A DNA stretch of 64,000 bases from an uncultured delta proteobacterium (GTDB taxonomy: Bacteria; Myxococcota; Myxococcia; Myxococcales; Myxococcaceae), in the NCBI GenBank assembly GCA_963771175.1, contig CAVYSY010000022.1, forward strand, positions 1 through 64,000, in the 5' to 3' direction. The notes under the pieces are model-generated. The model had not been told where the DNA came from. It saw only the letters and a list, made by a program, of their open reading frames with translations, and made no database searches. This document shows positions 44 through 10,947 of the stretch, one piece after another. A program made the position numbers and the translations under genes. Position 1 is the stretch's first letter. Every line of letters begins with the position of its first letter.

Positions 44-1627
44 CTACACCGGGGAGATTTCCCGGCGGCGGAAGGGGCGCTCCACTCTCTTGTTCGCCGT
101 GCGCTTGAGGGCTCGGGCCAGCAGCCGCCGCGTGTCGCGCGGGTCCACCACGTCGTCCACCATGGCCATGGCCGCTGTGCGCTCGATGCGGATGTGCTGC
201 CGCAGGCCCTCGGCCAGCTCCTTCTTCATCGCCTCGGCGGCCTCGGGGCTCTCCGCTCCCTGCAGCAGCTTGCGCGCGGCGATGGACACCATGCCCTCCG
301 GCCCCATCACGCCAATCTCCGCCCCAGGCCAGGCCACCAGCAGGTCCGGCTCGAAGGCCCGGCCGTTCATCACGTAGTAGCCCGCGCCGTAGCCCTTGCG
401 CACCACCACCGTGAGCTTGGGCACCGTGGCGCTCGCCGCCGCGTACATCATCTTCGCCCCGTGCCGGATGATGCCCTGCTGCTCCACCTTCGTGCCCACC
501 ATGAAGCCCGGCACGTCCTGCAGGAACACCAGCGGGATGTTGAAGGCGTCGCACAGGTTGATGAAGCGCGCCGCCTTGTCCGCCGCGTTCACGTCCAGGA
601 TGCCCCCCAGGAACATCGAGTTGTTCGCCACGATGCCCACCGGCCAGCCGTCGATCCGCGCCAGGCCCGTGATCAGGTTGCGCGCGAACCTCGGCTTGAG
701 CGGGAAGAACTTCCGGTCATCCACCAGCGACAGGATGACCTTGTGCATGTCGAACGCCTGCCGCGGGCTGTCCGGCACCACCTTCAACAGGTCCTCGTCC
801 CTCCGGTCGAACGGGTCCGACGACGGCTTGCGCGGAGGCTTGTCCTCGCAGTGCGAGGGGAAGAAGGACAGGTACTCGCGGATGGCGGTGATGCAGGCCG
901 CGTCGTCCGGGTACTCGGCGTCCGCCACGCCGGAGAGCTCGTTGTGGACCTTCGAGCCGCCCAGTTCCTCCTCCGTCACCTTCTCGCCCACCACGGACTC
1001 CACGAGGTACGGCCCGCCGATGGCGATGGAGCTCGTGCCCTTCACCATCGGCACGAAGTCCGCCAGCGCGGGGATGTAGGCCGTGCCGGCCGCCCCGGGG
1101 CCCACCATCGCCGCCACCTGTGGCACCACCCCGCTCATCACCACCTGCTCGCGGAAGAGGTACCCCGTGTCCGCGAAGCTCGCGAGGCGCCTCGGGTCGA
1201 TGTCGCCCCCCGCCTCGAGTCGCGCCCCCGCCGAGTCCACCAGCCACACCATCGGTATCCGGTTCTTCAGCGCGAGATCCCTGAGCCTCGCCACCTTGCG
1301 CTCGCCCACCGTCCCGATGGAGCCGCCGAACACCGTGAAGTCGTAGATGGCCGCCGCCACCGGCCGGCCGTCGATCTCTCCGACGCCCGTGATGACGCCG
1401 TCCGCCGGCGAGGGCCTGTTCGGGTCCTCCTCCTCGGGGAGGTTGCCCTCCGCTCCCGCCAGCAGCCCCATCTCCTCGAAGGTGCCCTCGTCGAACAGCC
1501 GCTTCAGGCGCTCGCGAGCGGTCAACTTCCCCTTGGCGTGCTGGCGCTCGATGCGCTCCGGCCCGCCCATGCCCTCGTTGCGCCGGCGCTGCTCCTCCAG
1601 CTTTTCCACCCGGTCCTTCATCTTCAT
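44..1627 (-). CDS. Acyl-CoA carboxylase, carboxyltransferase (beta) subunit
   Basis: 527 aa ORF with GKLTARER, ADGVITG, DFTVFGGS, DSAGAR, ARFINLCDAFNIPL, DVPGF and GIIRHGAK motifs of the PccB/MccB family. Confidence 0.95.
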   Translation of the reverse strand: MKMKDRVEKLEEQRRRNEGMGGPERIERQHAKGKLTARERLKRLFDEGTFEEMGLLAGAEGNLPEEEDPNRPSPADGVITGVGEIDGRPVAAAIYDFTVFGGSIGTVGERKVARLRDLALKNRIPMVWLVDSAGARLEAGGDIDPRRLASFADTGYLFREQVVMSGVVPQVAAMVGPGAAGTAYIPALADFVPMVKGTSSIAIGGPYLVESVVGEKVTEEELGGSKVHNELSGVADAEYPDDAACITAIREYLSFFPSHCEDKPPRKPSSDPFDRRDEDLLKVVPDSPRQAFDMHKVILSLVDDRKFFPLKPRFARNLITGLARIDGWPVGIVANNSMFLGGILDVNAADKAARFINLCDAFNIPLVFLQDVPGFMVGTKVEQQGIIRHGAKMMYAAASATVPKLTVVVRKGYGAGYYVMNGRAFEPDLLVAWPGAEIGVMGPEGMVSIAARKLLQGAESPEAAEAMKKELAEGLRQHIRIERTAAMAMVDDVVDPRDTRRLLARALKRTANKRVERPFRRREISPV

Positions 1628-1701
1628 GGTGTGGCCTCCCAGGAGAATCGGGGGCTACCTTGCCAGAGCCGCGCGCGCCCCCGGAAGGCTAGAGTGGGGC
1701 G

Positions 1702-2760
1702 GTGTCTTCCATCGCATCATGTGTTCTCGCCCTGGCTCTTGGGGCCGTGCTCGCCGGTTGTTCCGAGCCCCCCTCGGAACTCCGGCGTGCCGCCCGCGTG
1801 GAGGGCCGCGTCGAGCTGGCGGGCCTCGCTCGGGGCAATGCGTACCTGTTCCTGTTCGCTCCCGATGAGGCTCCTCCGGAGACCCGCGGCGAGCCGAGGT
1901 TCGTGGCCGCAGTGCCCGAGGTGCGTCTCGCCGCCGGGGATACTCGCTTCCGGTTCTCCGAGGTGGGCCCCGATGTGTACCGGCTGTGGGGGTTCCTCGA
2001 TTCCAATGGGGATGCGGATCTCACCGTGGACGTACTCGCGCAGCCGGGGGGAGGGGATTGGGTGCCCGCGTCCTCCGTCGAGCTGAATGTGCAGCCGGGG
2101 CAGGTGCTGCCAGCGGACCTCGTGCTGCCGCGCCGGATCCAGCGTCCGCTCCCCGCGTTCCAGGTGGTGGAGCAGGGGGAGGGGGGCGTGGTGAGTCTGA
2201 CGGACTCGGCCACGGCGATCGTCTCGTTCACCGTGAAGAGCGAGGGTCTTGGGATGCTGCGCGGGGACGCGCCCCGGTTCTTCGTCCGGCTCGCGGACGC
2301 GAATGGGGATGGGACCCCGGATGATGTGAACGGAGATGGGGTGGTCGACCTGTGGCCCCAGTTCTTCCTGCGTTTCGTGCCCAAGCCCGGACAGACCGTG
2401 CCCCTCGACAGCCTGGGGCGGCCCGCGCGGGTCATCGTGCCCCTGTTGCCCAATGCGACCCCGTTCCTCACGAGCCTCCAGGGGGATGTGGGCCGGGAGG
2501 TTGCCGTCGAGTTGCTGCAGCTCTTCGTCATCCCGTTCGCTCAGGCCATCACCGAGGAGCCTGGGACGGGGCGGGTGGTGACCACGCTCGGTGCCGTGCC
2601 GGTGGGGGATTACGAGCTGTGGGCCGTGAACGAGGAGGGGGGCTTCTGGTTTGTCCCCAATGACCTGGGCCAGCGGAGTGTGGAGCCCGTGCCGAGCCAG
2701 GCGCTGCGGTTCCGAGTGCTCCACGCCGGTGGCGCGGACGCCGGAGCGGGCTCTCCGTAG
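1702..2760 (+). CDS. Hypothetical lipoprotein with DxNGDG Ca-binding-like loops
   Basis: Hydrophobic signal with lipobox LAG-C; repeats DSNGDAD, DANGDG, DVNGDG; GC3-rich codon usage. Confidence 0.75.
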   Translation: MSSIASCVLALALGAVLAGCSEPPSELRRAARVEGRVELAGLARGNAYLFLFAPDEAPPETRGEPRFVAAVPEVRLAAGDTRFRFSEVGPDVYRLWGFLDSNGDADLTVDVLAQPGGGDWVPASSVELNVQPGQVLPADLVLPRRIQRPLPAFQVVEQGEGGVVSLTDSATAIVSFTVKSEGLGMLRGDAPRFFVRLADANGDGTPDDVNGDGVVDLWPQFFLRFVPKPGQTVPLDSLGRPARVIVPLLPNATPFLTSLQGDVGREVAVELLQLFVIPFAQAITEEPGTGRVVTTLGAVPVGDYELWAVNEEGGFWFVPNDLGQRSVEPVPSQALRFRVLHAGGADAGAGSP

Positions 2761-3375: not shown

Positions 3376-4920
3376 TTACCCCGAGAGGCGGCGGACCCAG
3401 TCGAAGTACGTGGCCCTCGGATCCTCCAGCGGATTGCGGAACAGCGCCCGGAGGTCCGCCCGGTCCACCTGGTCCCCGTCGAAGCCCCGGTAGAGCGCGT
3501 CTCCCAGCTGGTAGCCCAGCGCGTGGCTGACTCCGTGGAAGAGCCGGTCCTTGCGCAGCGGCAGCAGCTTCACCGCCTCGTCCGGCACCTCCACCTCCGC
3601 CGCCTTGTGCGCCAGCACGAACGCGGCGATCTGCCGCTCCACCCCTCGTGCCTCGGCGAAGCGCAGCGCCCACTCGCCCGGCCCCGGGCAGCTCCGCCTC
3701 GGGTTCACCAGCTTCGAGCCGAAGAACCCCAGCGCCTCCTCCAGGCACCGCGCGTAGAACGCATCCGAGGCCCGACGAGGCGCCTCCATCGCATCTCCCA
3801 CCGCGCAGTGCCGCACGAAGTGCGCCGCCTCCTCGGCCGCGTGGTTCAGCGACAGCGACGCCAGGTACGCCATCCGCGCCCGGGGGATGTAGCAGCTCTC
3901 GCGCGAGAGGATGTGCCGCCGCAGCTGCACCAGCTCCCCCTGCGTGAAGCGCCCCCGCTGCTGGATGCGCATCAGCGCGTCCTCGTCCGCCGCCGTCACC
4001 ACCTCCACCTCGTCCAGCGCCCGTCCCACCGGCACTCCCGCCAGCCGGCCGATGAGGCTCGCCATCTCCCGGAAGCGCTCGGCCGCGCTCCGGTCCCTCA
4101 GCGGCGAGTCCCCGGACTCCGCCTCCAGGTAGTCCAGGAAGCTCTGCTGGCACACCACCGGCGACGCGTTCAGCAGGCACAGCGAGCCGTCCGCCAGCTC
4201 CACCGCCTGCGCCACCCCCGCCTTCCCCTCGCGCGCCAGCCGCCAGTAGACGCCCTCGGCGTTCTGGTACACCACCAGCCCGCGCAGCCCGTGCCCCTCT
4301 CCCAGTGCCCGCTCCACCTGCGCCGGAAGGTGGCAGGGCGCCACGTGGTACTGGCCCACCAGCACCAGCACCCGGGGTCGATCCTCCGCTCGTGCCGCTC
4401 GGGCGATCCGCTCCGCCGCGTACGCGTCCCGCAGCTCCAGGGAGCGCTCACCCTGGGCTCGTCGGTCGATGCCCACCACCCCCAGGTGATGACGCTTCGC
4501 GTAGGCCAGCAGCGCCCGAAGGCCGGACCAGGAGCCCGTGCCATGCCCCAGCCGGGCCAGCAACGCGCGCTCCGCGAGGCGACCCGCCAGGTAGGCATCC
4601 ACCGCCGCCTGATGCCGGCCCTCCACGCTCTCGAGCGCCAGTACCACCCGGCGGCCGGCCTCACGCACGCCCTCGACCAGCTCCTGGTACGTCTCCTGGG
4701 CCAGCGGCAGCGTGTGGTAGTCGCCCACGTACACCACGTCCGCCGCCTGCACCTGCTGGAACACCGCCGAGGCCGGCAGCACCCGCTTGTACTCGGAGGT
4801 CCGCCGACGGTAGCGGGCCTCGTAGGATCGGAAGGACGCCGACTGCCCCTCGATGGCCCGGGAGATCTGGGCCTTCTGACGGCGGAACAGGGCGAGGTGG
4901 AGGGCGAGCGACGCGCGCAT
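3376..4920 (-). CDS. ChaN/Tiki-superfamily domain protein with a C-terminal zincin-like extension
   Basis: ADVVYVGDYH, ALESV, RDAYAA and LVGQYHV match ChaN-family motifs; no signal peptide. Confidence 0.75.
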   Translation of the reverse strand: MRASLALHLALFRRQKAQISRAIEGQSASFRSYEARYRRRTSEYKRVLPASAVFQQVQAADVVYVGDYHTLPLAQETYQELVEGVREAGRRVVLALESVEGRHQAAVDAYLAGRLAERALLARLGHGTGSWSGLRALLAYAKRHHLGVVGIDRRAQGERSLELRDAYAAERIARAARAEDRPRVLVLVGQYHVAPCHLPAQVERALGEGHGLRGLVVYQNAEGVYWRLAREGKAGVAQAVELADGSLCLLNASPVVCQQSFLDYLEAESGDSPLRDRSAAERFREMASLIGRLAGVPVGRALDEVEVVTAADEDALMRIQQRGRFTQGELVQLRRHILSRESCYIPRARMAYLASLSLNHAAEEAAHFVRHCAVGDAMEAPRRASDAFYARCLEEALGFFGSKLVNPRRSCPGPGEWALRFAEARGVERQIAAFVLAHKAAEVEVPDEAVKLLPLRKDRLFHGVSHALGYQLGDALYRGFDGDQVDRADLRALFRNPLEDPRATYFDWVRRLSG

Positions 4921-7828: not shown

Positions 7829-8667
7829 TGTCCCGCACGCTCTCCGCCGCACTCCTCGCCGTGGTCCTCGCGCCGGGCTTCGGCTGCCTCCAGTTCAACG
7901 ATCCCTGCCAGCCGCTGGTGGACGATCCGGAATCCATCGTCGGCTACCTGGCCGACGACGTCTTCCTCGACAAGCCCTTCGCCCGCCACGACAACCAGGC
8001 GCTCGGGCAGCTCGCCGCGGATGCCTTCCGCCATGCCGAGGACTCCTCGAAGGCACCCGCGGAGCTGGGCATCGTCAATGGGGGCTCCCTGCGCGCCGAG
8101 GGTCTGTGCATCACCCGCACCGTCATCCCCAAGGGCCCCCTGAAGAACGGCCTGCTGCACGAGGTGCTGCTCTTCGAGAACGCCGTGGTGACGGTGGACC
8201 TCACCGAACAGCAGCTCGTGGACATGTTCGAGCACTCGGTGGAGGGACTGTTCCCGGAGAATCAGCCCATCGTCTCGCCGTCCGGAGCCTTCCTGCAGGT
8301 GTCCGCGGGCACCACGGTGCAGGTGGACTGCTCGCTCCCCAAGGGGCAGCGCGTGGTGGGGCTGAAGGTGAACGACCGCACGGTGCCGCTGCCTCCGCGC
8401 GCGGATGCGAGCATCCGCTACCGCGTGGCCATGCCCGGCTTCCTCCTCCAGGGAGGAGACAACTACGGCACCATCTTCAAGGACGCGGCTTCGGACCTCT
8501 CGCGCAATCCGGTGACGGCGCGCACGGAGGCGGGCAGGGCCACGGACGCCAACCTCACCGAAGCCTGGATGCGGGTGAAGTACCCGAACGAGTCCCAGGC
8601 TCTCAAGGAGGAAGGCCGTGTCGTCTTCATCAACTGCGCTCGCCCCGGCCGGCCCGGGGTGAAGTAG
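7828..8667 (+). CDS. Exported protein (probable lipoprotein) consisting of a 5'-nucleotidase C-terminal domain only
   Basis: ATG overlaps the receptor TGA; signal peptide ending FG-C; motifs LGQLAADAF, NGGSLR, LLFENAVV, GAFLQVS and GGDNY. Confidence 0.85.
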   Translation: MSRTLSAALLAVVLAPGFGCLQFNDPCQPLVDDPESIVGYLADDVFLDKPFARHDNQALGQLAADAFRHAEDSSKAPAELGIVNGGSLRAEGLCITRTVIPKGPLKNGLLHEVLLFENAVVTVDLTEQQLVDMFEHSVEGLFPENQPIVSPSGAFLQVSAGTTVQVDCSLPKGQRVVGLKVNDRTVPLPPRADASIRYRVAMPGFLLQGGDNYGTIFKDAASDLSRNPVTARTEAGRATDANLTEAWMRVKYPNESQALKEEGRVVFINCARPGRPGVK

Positions 8668-8697
8668 GGCCGGCGGCGGGGGGCGCGTCCGTCTGGA

Positions 8698-8916
8698 CTA
8701 CGACGCGTCGCCCGGACCGTCGGGCTGCCCCGTCGGCGTGGGCCCGAACACGTCGTTGGGCGATGGCATCTTGCGGAGGTCGGCGCGGGCCACCTTCCAC
8801 GCCTGTTGGACGATCCACGAGAGCGAGCGGTCCTGCCGCGTCGCCTCACGCTGGATCTCCTCCAGCATGTCCTCGGGGAAGTAGAGACTCTGTTTTCGAT
8901 GATCGGTGGCTGCCAT
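8698..8916 (-). CDS. cdbB: c-di-GMP/DNA-binding ribbon-helix-helix protein CdbB (TIGR04563 family)
   Basis: RKQSLYFPEDML...RQDRSLSWIVQQAW; second gene of the tandem pair. Confidence 0.88.
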   Translation of the reverse strand: MAATDHRKQSLYFPEDMLEEIQREATRQDRSLSWIVQQAWKVARADLRKMPSPNDVFGPTPTGQPDGPGDAS

Positions 8917-8921
8917 GGGGC

Positions 8922-9134
8922 CTAGGACCTTCCTTCCTCTCGGGGATCCTGTCGCTCGTCGCCCGTTACGTCGTTGACCGCCGGGAAGGACTTGATTCGC
9001 TCACGGGCGATCTTCCAGGCCTGCTGGACGACCCACGAGAGCGAACGATCCTGGCGATTGGCCTCCTCCTGGATCTCCTTGAGCATCTCCTCGGGGAAGT
9101 AGAGGGACTGCTTACGCTTGTCGGTGCCTGCCAT
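8922..9134 (-). CDS. cdbA: c-di-GMP-binding nucleoid-associated ribbon-helix-helix protein CdbA
   Basis: 70 aa MAGTDKRKQSLYFPEEMLKEIQEE..., recognised as closely matching M. xanthus MXAN_4361; divergent from tilS as in M. xanthus. Start is 9134, not 9617. Confidence 0.92.
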   Translation of the reverse strand: MAGTDKRKQSLYFPEEMLKEIQEEANRQDRSLSWVVQQAWKIARERIKSFPAVNDVTGDERQDPREEGRS

Positions 9135-9265
9135 ACCTGGGTCTCCGGAGCGGATACGAGGTGACGACCTGAACACACCGGGGCCGTTATCCGACAGACC
9201 TTCTGACGGGTCAACGGTTTCGGAGTGCGCCCGCACCGTATGCATGCGGGCTGACGTCGTCCGGG

Positions 9266-9325
9266 AAAAAAAACACCCGCAAAAGGGAACGCCCCGGGTT
9301 CTCGACTGAGAACCCGGGGCGCTCC
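9266..9325 (-). terminator. Intrinsic terminator
   Basis: 18-bp stem GGAGCGCCCCGGGTTCTC/GAGAACCCGGGGCGTTCC with a 4-nt loop, followed by CTTTT and a later T8 run. Confidence 0.75.
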
Positions 9326-9405
9326 GGAAAGAAGGACCGCCAGGACATATCCCGGCGGCCCCGTGGGCCCAGAGGGGGAGGGGGGGGACCCCTAGGCCCA
9401 ACTCC
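9281..9405 (-). ncRNA. Candidate three-stem-loop small RNA or structured leader upstream of cdbA
   Basis: Three consecutive hairpins (9364-9400, 9333-9362, 9286-9325) followed by a U-tract; TAAAAT -10-like box at 9412-9417 on the minus strand. Confidence 0.55.
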
Positions 9406-9576
9406 GTCAAAATTTTATGTTCAGAACATTCCTGGTCGCATCCAACATTCCCCACCGCCCTCTTTTCCCCGACCCTCGCGACCTGCAGGACGATCATAAG
9501 AATCGTCTTCGGCACCTTCAACCGACCGCATCCGGTGTAACCCGAGTCGCCAGATTCTGATTCCTTCCCCTGTTCA

Positions 9577-10947
9577 ATGCCGTCCACTCCCGACGCGAGC
9601 GTCCTGTTTTCGACCACCCTGGAGCGGGCCTACCGCCATTTCGGGCTGGTGGGAGGCTCCGTGCTGCTGGCCGTCTCCGGGGGCGCGGACTCGACGGCGC
9701 TGCTCGTGGGGACGGCCGCGGTGTCCGAGCGCCTCTCGCTGAGGGTGGAGGTGGCCACGCTCGACCACGGCCTGCGCCCGGAGGCCCGAGAGGAGGTGGA
9801 GGCGGTTGCCCGGCTGGCCGCTCGCTGGGGGCTGCCCTGTCATATACGCCCGTTGCATCTGTCACCGGGTTCCGCGCTGGAGGCCCGGGCGCGCGAGGCC
9901 CGCTACACGGCGCTGGAGGCGCTCCGGCGCGAGCGGGGCCTTCAGGCGGTGGCCACGGCGCACACGGCCTCGGACCAGGCGGAGACGCTCCTCATGCGGT
10001 TGGTGCGCGGCACCGCCTTGAGAGGAGCGGCCAGCATCCACCGGGCCCGCCCCTTCCTCGTCCGCCCGCTCATCGAGCGCACGCGCGAGGAGGTGGAGGC
10101 CTTCCTCGCGGAGCAGGGTGTCTCCTTCGTGGAGGACCCGATGAACCGGGACCCCGCCTTTCTGCGCACCCGCATCCGTCATGAGGTGCTGCCGGCCCTG
10201 TCACGCGCCGCGGGCTTCCCCGTGGGGCCGCGCCTGGCCTCCTTCGCCCGGCTGGCCGCCGAGGACGAAGCCCTGCTGGGCGGGCTGGCGGACGAGGCAT
10301 GGCGCCGGCTCGCACTCGAGGACGGCAGCCTGGACGCCGTGGGAGTGCGCGCCCTGGAACCGCCCCTGCGCCGCCGGGTGCTGGCTCGCCTGCTGGCCGA
10401 GGCTGGCGCCGACGTGGACGACGCCTCCCTCTCCCGCGCGCTGGAGGCCGTGGAGACGGGCCGGGCCCGCACCTTGGGAGGCGGTCACGAGCGAGGGGGG
10501 CTCCAGCTCCGCACCTCGGGCGGACGCGTGCGCTGCGTGCGCCGCGCGGGCCCCGCCGAGCCGCCCCCCGAATTGGTGCTGGCGGGGGAGGGGGCCTCGG
10601 GTGTCCAGGCGGGCACGGGCTGGGCCTTCTCCGTGGCGCGGGCCTCGCCTCCTCCGGGCACCCTCGGCCTCGCGCTGGCCAAGGACACGCGCTGGCCCCT
10701 CCTCGTGCGGACGCGGCGGCCCGGGGACCGGGTGCGAGGGCCCGCCGGCTCGCGCAAGCTGCAGGATGTGCTGGTGGATCGGCGCATTCCCGCCGAGCGG
10801 CGCGACGGGTTGCCCGTGGTGACGGACGCCCAGGGGACCGTGCTCTGGGTCCCAGGGGTCTGGAATTCCACATCCGCGAGCGCTGTATGCCTCTTTCTGT
10901 GGGCCACCCCACCGGGCGCGAGCATGCCCGGCACCTTCCCGTTATAG
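9577..10947 (+). CDS. tilS: tRNA(Ile)-lysidine synthetase
   Basis: AVSGGADS PP-loop, DHGLR, ARYTAL, TAHTASDQAET, RPLI; TilS C-terminal domain; directly upstream of ftsH. Confidence 0.96.
   Translation: MPSTPDASVLFSTTLERAYRHFGLVGGSVLLAVSGGADSTALLVGTAAVSERLSLRVEVATLDHGLRPEAREEVEAVARLAARWGLPCHIRPLHLSPGSALEARAREARYTALEALRRERGLQAVATAHTASDQAETLLMRLVRGTALRGAASIHRARPFLVRPLIERTREEVEAFLAEQGVSFVEDPMNRDPAFLRTRIRHEVLPALSRAAGFPVGPRLASFARLAAEDEALLGGLADEAWRRLALEDGSLDAVGVRALEPPLRRRVLARLLAEAGADVDDASLSRALEAVETGRARTLGGGHERGGLQLRTSGGRVRCVRRAGPAEPPPELVLAGEGASGVQAGTGWAFSVARASPPPGTLGLALAKDTRWPLLVRTRRPGDRVRGPAGSRKLQDVLVDRRIPAERRDGLPVVTDAQGTVLWVPGVWNSTSASAVCLFLWATPPGASMPGTFPL

Follow-up and report, generated by a model that had tools for sequence, protein, structure and literature searches.

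Pxr is the only functionally studied small RNA (sRNA) of myxobacteria that we found in the literature, besides the unnamed candidates of a 2025 interactome preprint (10.1101/2025.09.11.675593), by whose account the targets of Pxr were unknown until then. In Pxr, stem-loops SL1 and SL2 are conserved and SL3 is variable (PMC5684412), and its locus, MXAN_1078/1079 (pxrA = MXAN_1079), lies downstream of MXAN_1078 (PMC11928866). Farther from myxobacteria, the 6C RNA of Actinobacteria (RF01066; 6C/B11 in M. tuberculosis) pairs chaperone-free with G-rich sites in mRNAs through an apical loop that holds at least six consecutive C (PMC6486639). Here we describe a previously unnamed small RNA gene on the minus strand between tilS and cdbA, in a 64,000-nt stretch of DNA (GenBank assembly GCA_963771175.1, contig CAVYSY010000022.1, positions 1 to 64,000; the window hereafter) from an uncultured organism whose CdbA and RNA identities mark it as an Archangium-like myxobacterium. 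The RNA has three abutting hairpins, also called SL1, SL2 and SL3 below, shows strict conservation in eight or more genera, and in Myxococcus xanthus is preceded by transcription starts that switch on in development beside a binding peak of MrpC. It constitutes a new RNA family of a known kind of regulator.

No Rfam family reached its gathering score anywhere in the window, and relaxed thresholds returned only weak, sub-threshold matches to RcsR1, 6C, Pxr and others. The initial annotation had called the element Pxr-like, which holds as a loose analogy, in that both RNAs are myxobacterial, about 100-130 nt long, predicted to form three stem-loops and linked to development. It does not hold as family membership: the Pxr model (RF01812) gave 19.1 bits (E 1.4) against a gathering score of 80 and covered SL2-SL3 only (9282-9365), the RNA described here sits between tilS and cdbA and not beside pxrA, and Pxr acts during growth to block development, whereas the start sites of our RNA rise in development. 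Nor do the C-rich loops that the initial annotation ascribed to Pxr carry over to this RNA, in which only the SL1 loop is C-rich. The 6C model scored 21.1 bits (E 5; gathering score 47) and was aligned whole by cmscan to SL1-SL2, including the C-run. The two RNAs are alike in being short, in their high-GC hosts, in their abutting hairpins and in the C-run of an apical loop; they differ in that the C-rich loop is found here in one of two hairpins only, in that a third hairpin is a terminator, and in phylum and genomic context. RcsR1, or "cuckoo" (CcsR; RF02552), gave the best sub-threshold match, to SL1-SL2 (22.3 bits, E 0.077; gathering score 60), with a poor alignment of SL1. The stem-loops of these RNAs presumably show anti-Shine-Dalgarno loops of the CCUCC type, followed by a terminator hairpin, and in this they resemble the RNA described here; they differ from it in lineage (Alphaproteobacteria as against myxobacteria), and cuckoo RNAs occur as repeated gene copies, whereas here there is a single copy per locus. 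Membership in the Pxr, 6C and RcsR1 families was therefore rejected, all scores being below the gathering scores, and the C-rich-loop sRNAs of other phyla (6C, RcsR1/cuckoo), rather than Pxr, are by analogy of parts what we would call its closest functional analogues. Our literature search found no paper containing the loop sequence or describing this RNA, no relevant paper joining myxobacteria, sRNA and C-rich, and no M. xanthus sRNA catalogue covering the locus; the unnamed M. xanthus candidates given in the interactome preprint (10.1101/2025.09.11.675593) carry other locus tags, and "MXnc1" is named there besides.

Fold and conservation of the RNA

The 155 nt at 9420-9266 (minus strand) fold into three abutting hairpins with a minimum free energy of -89.4 kcal/mol, against a mean of -63.6 (standard deviation 4.6) for shuffled sequences (z -5.67), and none of 200 shuffles was as stable. 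The three-hairpin fold is real and not a chance structure, and the coordinates first proposed for SL1, SL2, SL3 and an upstream TAAAAT box (9417-9412), as well as the stem lengths of 12, 13 and 18 bp, were all correct on the minus strand. The RNA core, made of SL1, SL2, a linker, SL3 and the first U-run, spans 9280..9404 and is matched at 131.2 bits (E 9e-26) by R1, a covariance model built from 42 sequences with the window fold as its structure. SL1 (9364..9400) has a 12-bp stem and a 13-nt loop, UCCCCCCCCUCCC at 9388-9376, which contains the anti-Shine-Dalgarno sequence CCUCC, as had been noted from the sequence, and is the proposed seed; its bases have a predicted probability of about 0.9 or higher of being unpaired, in the RNA of the window and in that of M. 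xanthus alike. SL2 (9333..9362) has a 13-bp stem and a loop that reads UAUG here and varies in relatives. The linker (9326..9332) is CU-rich and predicted to be single-stranded, and with the flanking stem bases it reads CC[U/C]UCUUUCC, a second stretch resembling an anti-Shine-Dalgarno sequence. SL3 (9325-9286; 9267..9325 with the U-runs) has an 18-bp GC-rich stem, is followed directly by CCUUUUGCGGGUGUUUUUUUU, and forms an intrinsic terminator at the 3' end of the RNA; its other side reads GGAAAGAGG, which is A/G-rich, so that U-runs are found on the RNA strand only. SL3 was missed by a simple terminator scan (0 found); its predicted stem takes in the U residues that come first, and the run of U is broken. 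A U-rich tail (5 T or more within some 8-nt stretch right after SL3) is nevertheless present in 67 of 67 full-length homologues, which, with the stability of the fold, bears out the original description of a three-stem-loop RNA with a C-rich loop and its own terminator.

Relatives were collected through a CdbA scan with one genome per species, from which the best 80 of 366 confirmed loci were taken; these come from Archangium, Cystobacter, Vitiosangium, Citreicoccus, Myxococcus, Corallococcus, Hyalangium, Pyxidicoccus and many metagenome-assembled genomes (MAGs). Already by blastn alone the RNA is detected in most of the best 80 loci, always on the cdbA strand. A homologue is present in 69 of these 80 loci, one per locus and in at least eight named genera, with the stems and the C-rich loop kept across the tilS-cdbA regions, as the initial annotation had proposed to check. 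R1 gave 67 full-length matches of 65.9-132 bits, again one per locus; one further copy is cut at its 5' end (L053, 55.9 bits) and another is divergent (L078, 29.5 bits, with the loop ACCCCCUCCCCC). The window holds a single R1 match, and second copies were rejected within the scope of the 64-kb window and of each locus. On the opposite strand R1 matches only the palindromic SL3, at 15-30 bits across the loci and at 27.3 bits in the window, as against 131.2 bits for the whole element, in agreement with the strand specificity first suggested by G-U pairs in SL1 and SL2; those of SL1 are kept in relatives, as UG in 46 and as GU in 56 of 62 distinct rows. Eleven of the 80 loci gave no match: four have less than 200 nt upstream of cdbA, five are cut inside an intervening gene described below, and the remaining two are taken up where the proposed function is weighed.

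Base pairs were counted in an alignment fitted to the model and hence biased towards its structure (68 rows, 62 distinct), where standard pairs fill 96.6% of cells, against 84.2% with shuffled partners (a value of 96.6% was reached in 0 of 500 shuffles) and 34-62% with slid partners. Compensatory changes on both sides occur in 31 of the 43 pairs (4/12 in SL1, 9/13 in SL2 and 18/18 in SL3); one SL1 stem pair, for example, is GC in 41 rows, AU in 19 and UA in 1. A plain MAFFT alignment analyzed with RNAalifold still showed 18 of 34 pairs to be compensatory, with SL1 ungapped. The sole same-strand open reading frame that overlaps the RNA encodes 45 aa (9348..9211), and its AUG, in the SL2 loop, is missing from relatives, so that the structure covaries without a conserved reading frame, as judged without a formal coding-potential test. 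The pattern of substitutions indicates that selection acts at the RNA level.

The letters themselves are most constrained in SL1, where all 64 sequences share GGGGU..CCCCCUCCCC without change. Near-invariance extends over GGGGU-C(6-9)-UCCCC and the linker CC(C/U)UCUUUCC, while the SL2 loop (in sequence and length) and the top of SL3 vary freely. Most of the 64 sequences in the alignment carry no substitution in a block of 22 nt. Among ten genus-level sequences, the SL1 loop and the linker have the highest identity of all intergenic letters (0.95-1.00; 0.95 for the linker) and the RNA core as a whole reaches 0.74-1.00, with poor flanks on both sides (0.05-0.5), namely 0.05-0.5 over the upstream 80 nt and 0.32-0.49 between the terminator and the cdbA promoter. 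Conservation is also higher in SL1 and the linker than in the upper stem of SL3. Variant forms occur as well: in L068 (200-281) the R1 match ends after SL2, with a U-run directly 3' of it, which gives a two-hairpin form without SL3, and in L061 (205-327) U-runs follow both SL2 and SL3.

Synteny, transcription starts and promoters

In the window, cdbA (9134..8922, minus strand) encodes a ribbon-helix-helix protein and is followed by its paralogue cdbB (8916..8698, minus strand), which encodes another. The cdbA start at 9134 lies 133-152 nt beyond the 3' end region of the RNA, in line with the initial estimate of about 130-150 nt, and on the other side tilS (9577..10947, plus strand), with ftsH next after it, is divergent from the RNA. 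A comparable arrangement is seen in 48 of the 69 loci, where 76-225 nt separate the end of the RNA from a cdbA on the same strand. In the other 21 the RNA ends 2.1-2.4 kb before cdbA, and an opposite-strand gene of about 700 aa with Ig-like/PKD domains, homologous across the 21 loci (39-64% identical to the L065 protein), lies in between; five more loci have this gene and are cut before its end. The RNA is fully conserved where the gene intervenes. There, tilS stays divergent beside it (with N-termini bearing the SGGADS motif in L062 and L064), and the RNA therefore travels with the tilS side, while downstream of the RNA there is no gene on its strand. It follows that the RNA is not always part of the 5' untranslated region of cdbAB downstream of its start, and an independent gene fits better than a cdbA leader. 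The intervening gene may either have been inserted in one lineage or lost in the other; in L065, which belongs to the group L048-L080, it occupies 310-2448 (minus strand) and ends about 24 nt after the RNA terminator.

Transcription starts were taken from the M. xanthus DK1622 Cappable-seq data of Kuzmich et al. 2022 (PMC8844925), namely from the cdbA rows of Table S2B/C. According to these rows, the strongest starts of cdbA (MXAN_4361 = MXAN_RS21170) are -44, with a relative read score of 95.5/143 at 0 h, and -54, and a second cluster of same-strand starts is given at -307, -302/-301, -294 and -287. The M. xanthus locus of our collection (L042) has a tilS-cdbA spacer equal to the 455 bp listed for DK1622, and in it the GUUGG of SL1 is at -286. 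The upstream cluster thus falls 21 to 1 nt before SL1, and the -44 and -54 starts fall downstream of the RNA terminator. In the same rows the -287 site is missing from the 0 h entries and ranks first at 6, 12, 18 and 24 h (32/16, 30/39, 24/18 and 22/10), while the -44 site drops to 14-28 in development and the mRNAs of cdbA and cdbB are down-regulated (PMC8844925). Upstream starts that rise while cdbA mRNA falls fit transcripts that stop at SL3. A start of its own, apart from those of its neighbours, is seen for the RNA in the M. xanthus orthologue only, and the 5' end zone expected in the window (9403..9423, minus strand, which includes the TAAAAT box) is projected from the M. xanthus positions.

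An MrpC peak from chromatin immunoprecipitation sequencing (ChIP-seq) is reported at -332 (PMC8844925), and this position lies 25-45 bp from the upstream starts. By the same source cdbA is a candidate MrpC target, but falls outside the 9 of 18 candidate genes that change in an mrpC mutant. Within the limited resolution of ChIP, we infer that the peak serves the RNA and not cdbA. The upstream region of cdbA should accordingly be reread, as its developmental starts and MrpC peak probably belong to the RNA, which would explain both the fall of cdbA mRNA in development and its independence of MrpC. Because the M. xanthus starts switch on in starvation-induced development at such a short distance from the peak, the RNA is probably a developmentally induced regulator.

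The promoter of cdbA itself, TTGACC-N17-GATAAC (9186..9214, minus strand; 2421-2449 in L042), lies downstream of the RNA terminator and belongs to the context, not to the RNA; its identity across genera is 0.63-1.0, and in L042 it ends 8 nt before the -44 start. The 5' untranslated region of cdbA is also highly conserved (0.76-1.0). Upstream of the RNA, motifs were counted in 57 distinct regions of at least 150 nt, with L002, L031 and L038 dropped for a double anchor match. A promoter scan identified a sigma-70-like element pointing at the RNA, TTGAAG-N17-TATGAT (P1; 9493..9521, minus strand; 2100-2128 in L042). The pattern TTGNNN-N16-18-TANNNT, mostly TTGAAG/TTGCYS-N17-TATGAT, is found 85-142 nt before SL1 in 47 of the 57 regions (shuffle mean 3.85), with the TATGAT form in 39, and it is kept in loci with the intervening gene, where the RNA alone lies downstream. 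P1 may drive transcription in other conditions or give rise to a longer precursor. In the window, the G-rich leader of a P1 transcript is predicted to pair with the SL1 loop; a long isoform masking its own loop was rejected, since in 49 distinct loci shuffled leaders pair with the loop just as well (mean z -0.01; 2 of 49 below -1.64).

Closer to SL1 stands P2, GGAAT-N17/18-TGTT (9425..9451, minus strand), which could be an alternative-sigma-like promoter or a regulator binding site. Its pattern, G[GA]AA[AT]-N15-20-[CTG]GTT, recurs 43-59 nt before SL1 in 54 of the 57 regions (0.75 on average in shuffles). In M. xanthus the 3' half of P2 (TGTTCT) ends 2-8 nt before the -307/-302 starts and its 5' half is under the MrpC peak. 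In the window GGAATGTT is repeated within P2, at 9451-9444 and 9432-9425, and in some MAG loci P2 is a perfect inverted repeat (GGAACA-N10-TGTTCC in L062). As for the TAAAAT box, the initial annotation was right on its presence, and it aligns with TCGAAT, 8 nt upstream of -287, the strongest developmental start in M. xanthus, so that it may be a -10 element; as a hexamer, however, it is not kept in relatives, which have GTAAAT, GTGGAT or TCGAAT in its place, and only an A/T-rich patch persists.

Proposed function and its alternatives

We consider it fairly probable that the element is a free-standing and presumably trans-acting, Hfq-independent sRNA whose C-rich loop and linker pair with G-rich ribosome-binding sites. 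Of the two possibilities named in the initial annotation, a sRNA or a leader of cdbAB, synteny and start sites speak for the first. The RNA, predicted to be about 125-145 nt long, would be a conserved gene of Myxococcaceae/Archangiaceae, always adjoining tilS and divergent from it. In the M. xanthus orthologue its transcription starts no more than about 20 nt ahead of SL1 and would end at SL3, and the window organism would behave likewise. The invariant 13-nt SL1 loop, aided by the CU-rich linker, would then pair with G-rich Shine-Dalgarno regions and block translation initiation, with SL2 acting as a structural spacer and SL3 as terminator and stabiliser. A seed function of the SL1 loop is suggested by its invariance, its predicted accessibility and the analogy with C-rich-loop sRNAs. 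M. xanthus, as stated in the interactome preprint (10.1101/2025.09.11.675593), is without Hfq, and 6C pairs chaperone-free via a loop rich in C; we therefore favour an action in trans, with the RNA serving as an anti-Shine-Dalgarno sequence. A second myxobacterial sRNA with an evident candidate seed would provide a tractable entry to Hfq-independent RNA regulation in high-GC bacteria, and the covariance model R1 could seed an entry in an RNA-family database.

Several points weigh against this proposal. The authors of the M. xanthus study assigned the upstream starts to cdbA, and read-through at SL3 is possible. A start from P1 would be expected about 80 nt farther upstream, and the M. xanthus table, which gives no upstream limit for its listings, has none at 5367300-5367499; any of P1, P2 and the A/T-rich box may be the promoter. 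Two loci are without the RNA in 2.5 kb of upstream flank: in L077 another gene lies upstream, and L079 has a low-GC tilS-cdbA spacer devoid of it. The pair counts carry the structural bias of their alignment mentioned above. The 64-kb window shows no enrichment of loop complements (14 sites against 21.9 expected). As to cdbB, complementarity to the linker is strong only in the Archangium clade, with z from -3.1 to -4.8 in 11 rows and from -1.3 to +1.4 in the remaining 37; 13 loci with no recognisable cdbB start or linker were skipped, and shuffling of the ribosome-binding site inflates these z values. Finally, what is read here as an mRNA seed, the 22-nt invariant stretch, could equally serve to bind a protein or the ribosome.

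The cdbB ribosome-binding region of the window (8917-8946, minus strand) is purine-rich, reads GAGGAAGGAAGG and also encodes the C-terminus of CdbA; it is complementary over 10 nt to the linker CCUUCUUUCC (-14.7 kcal/mol). With its signal limited to the 11 Archangium-clade rows, cdbB was rejected as a conserved neighbouring target of the linker and is kept as a weak lead; loop complements in the window were dropped as uninformative on targets. One extension of the sRNA proposal, which we put forward as a conjecture and hold to be doubtful, is that the RNA is a second developmental riboregulator beside Pxr, activated by MrpC and induced by starvation. With its poly-C loop and a linker similar to the 3' end of 16S rRNA, it would act as an anti-Shine-Dalgarno mimic that shuts down strongly Shine-Dalgarno-led mRNAs at entry into fruiting-body formation, a set that may include cdbB and growth-phase functions.

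Should the invariant block be a binding site for something other than mRNA, the RNA could be a sponge or decoy, with the poly-C loop and the linker binding a poly(C)-binding or S1-like protein, or mimicking the 3' end of 16S rRNA and so titrating Shine-Dalgarno sequences globally. Such a role would suit a 22-nt block which, being without substitution in most of 64 sequences, is stricter than many mRNA seeds, and would suit a linker resembling what we take to be the CCUCCUUUC end of 16S rRNA, there being no rRNA within the window for comparison. A protein partner, however, would have no conserved neighbour gene at this locus, the neighbours being tilS, cdbA or the Ig-like gene, and the known C-rich-loop sRNAs work by base pairing (PMC6486639). 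We regard a decoy as unlikely.

The second possibility of the initial annotation, a cis-acting leader or attenuator of cdbAB in which a stop or read-through at SL3 would be set by a signal such as c-di-GMP, CdbA itself or the state of the ribosome, appears to us quite improbable. Its appeal comes from the 48 of 69 loci in which the RNA is close to cdbA on the same strand, from the listing of the -307 to -287 starts as cdbA starts in M. xanthus (PMC8844925), and from the binding of CdbA to a "cdbAB promoter" fragment in an electrophoretic mobility shift assay (PMC7156744). It is countered by the opposite-strand gene of about 700 aa that separates a still conserved RNA from cdbA in 21 of 69 loci and in the 5 that are cut, by the conserved cdbA promoter and the main -44/-54 starts downstream of the terminator, and by the rise of the upstream starts in development while cdbA mRNA falls. 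The fold argues in the same direction, as both the minimum free energy and the centroid structures consist of three independent hairpins without a competing antiterminator. Riboswitch families, such as c-di-GMP-I/II, gave no match in 8600-10000 even at E values up to 10, and the conserved residues are in an apical loop rather than in a junction or internal loop, as a riboswitch would have them. Attenuation is thus disfavoured, though it may still act on read-through transcripts.

That the element is a mere terminator or insulator, with SL3 ending transcripts between divergent and convergent genes, and with SL1 and SL2 as incidental GC-rich structure, is very hard to believe: SL3 is indeed a strong palindromic hairpin, matched weakly by R1 on both strands (15-30 bits), and the convergent gene of 21 loci ends shortly after it (about 24 nt in L065), but this reading is contradicted by the conservation of SL1, which with the linker outdoes the upper stem of SL3, as well as by the compensatory changes that keep SL1 and SL2 paired, the restriction of U-runs after SL3 to the RNA strand, and the start sites just upstream of SL1.

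Further observations on the locus

A search by blastn returned no match to the RNA in phages or plasmids, and a mobile or phage origin was rejected on that basis. One of the 80 loci, L033 (BNCN01000007.1), comes from an assembly titled "Comamonas sp. KCTC 72670" and carries a Myxococcus-type tilS-RNA-cdbA locus, with a CdbA 97% identical and an RNA of 119 bits; this assembly is probably mislabelled or contaminated. In M. xanthus, where cdbA and cdbB are described as one operon, the RNA-seq counts of cdbB given in Table S1A of PMC8844925 (about 3700-3960 at 0 h) are about 16 times those of cdbA (about 210-250), a gap that a stable downstream fragment or differential decay could produce.

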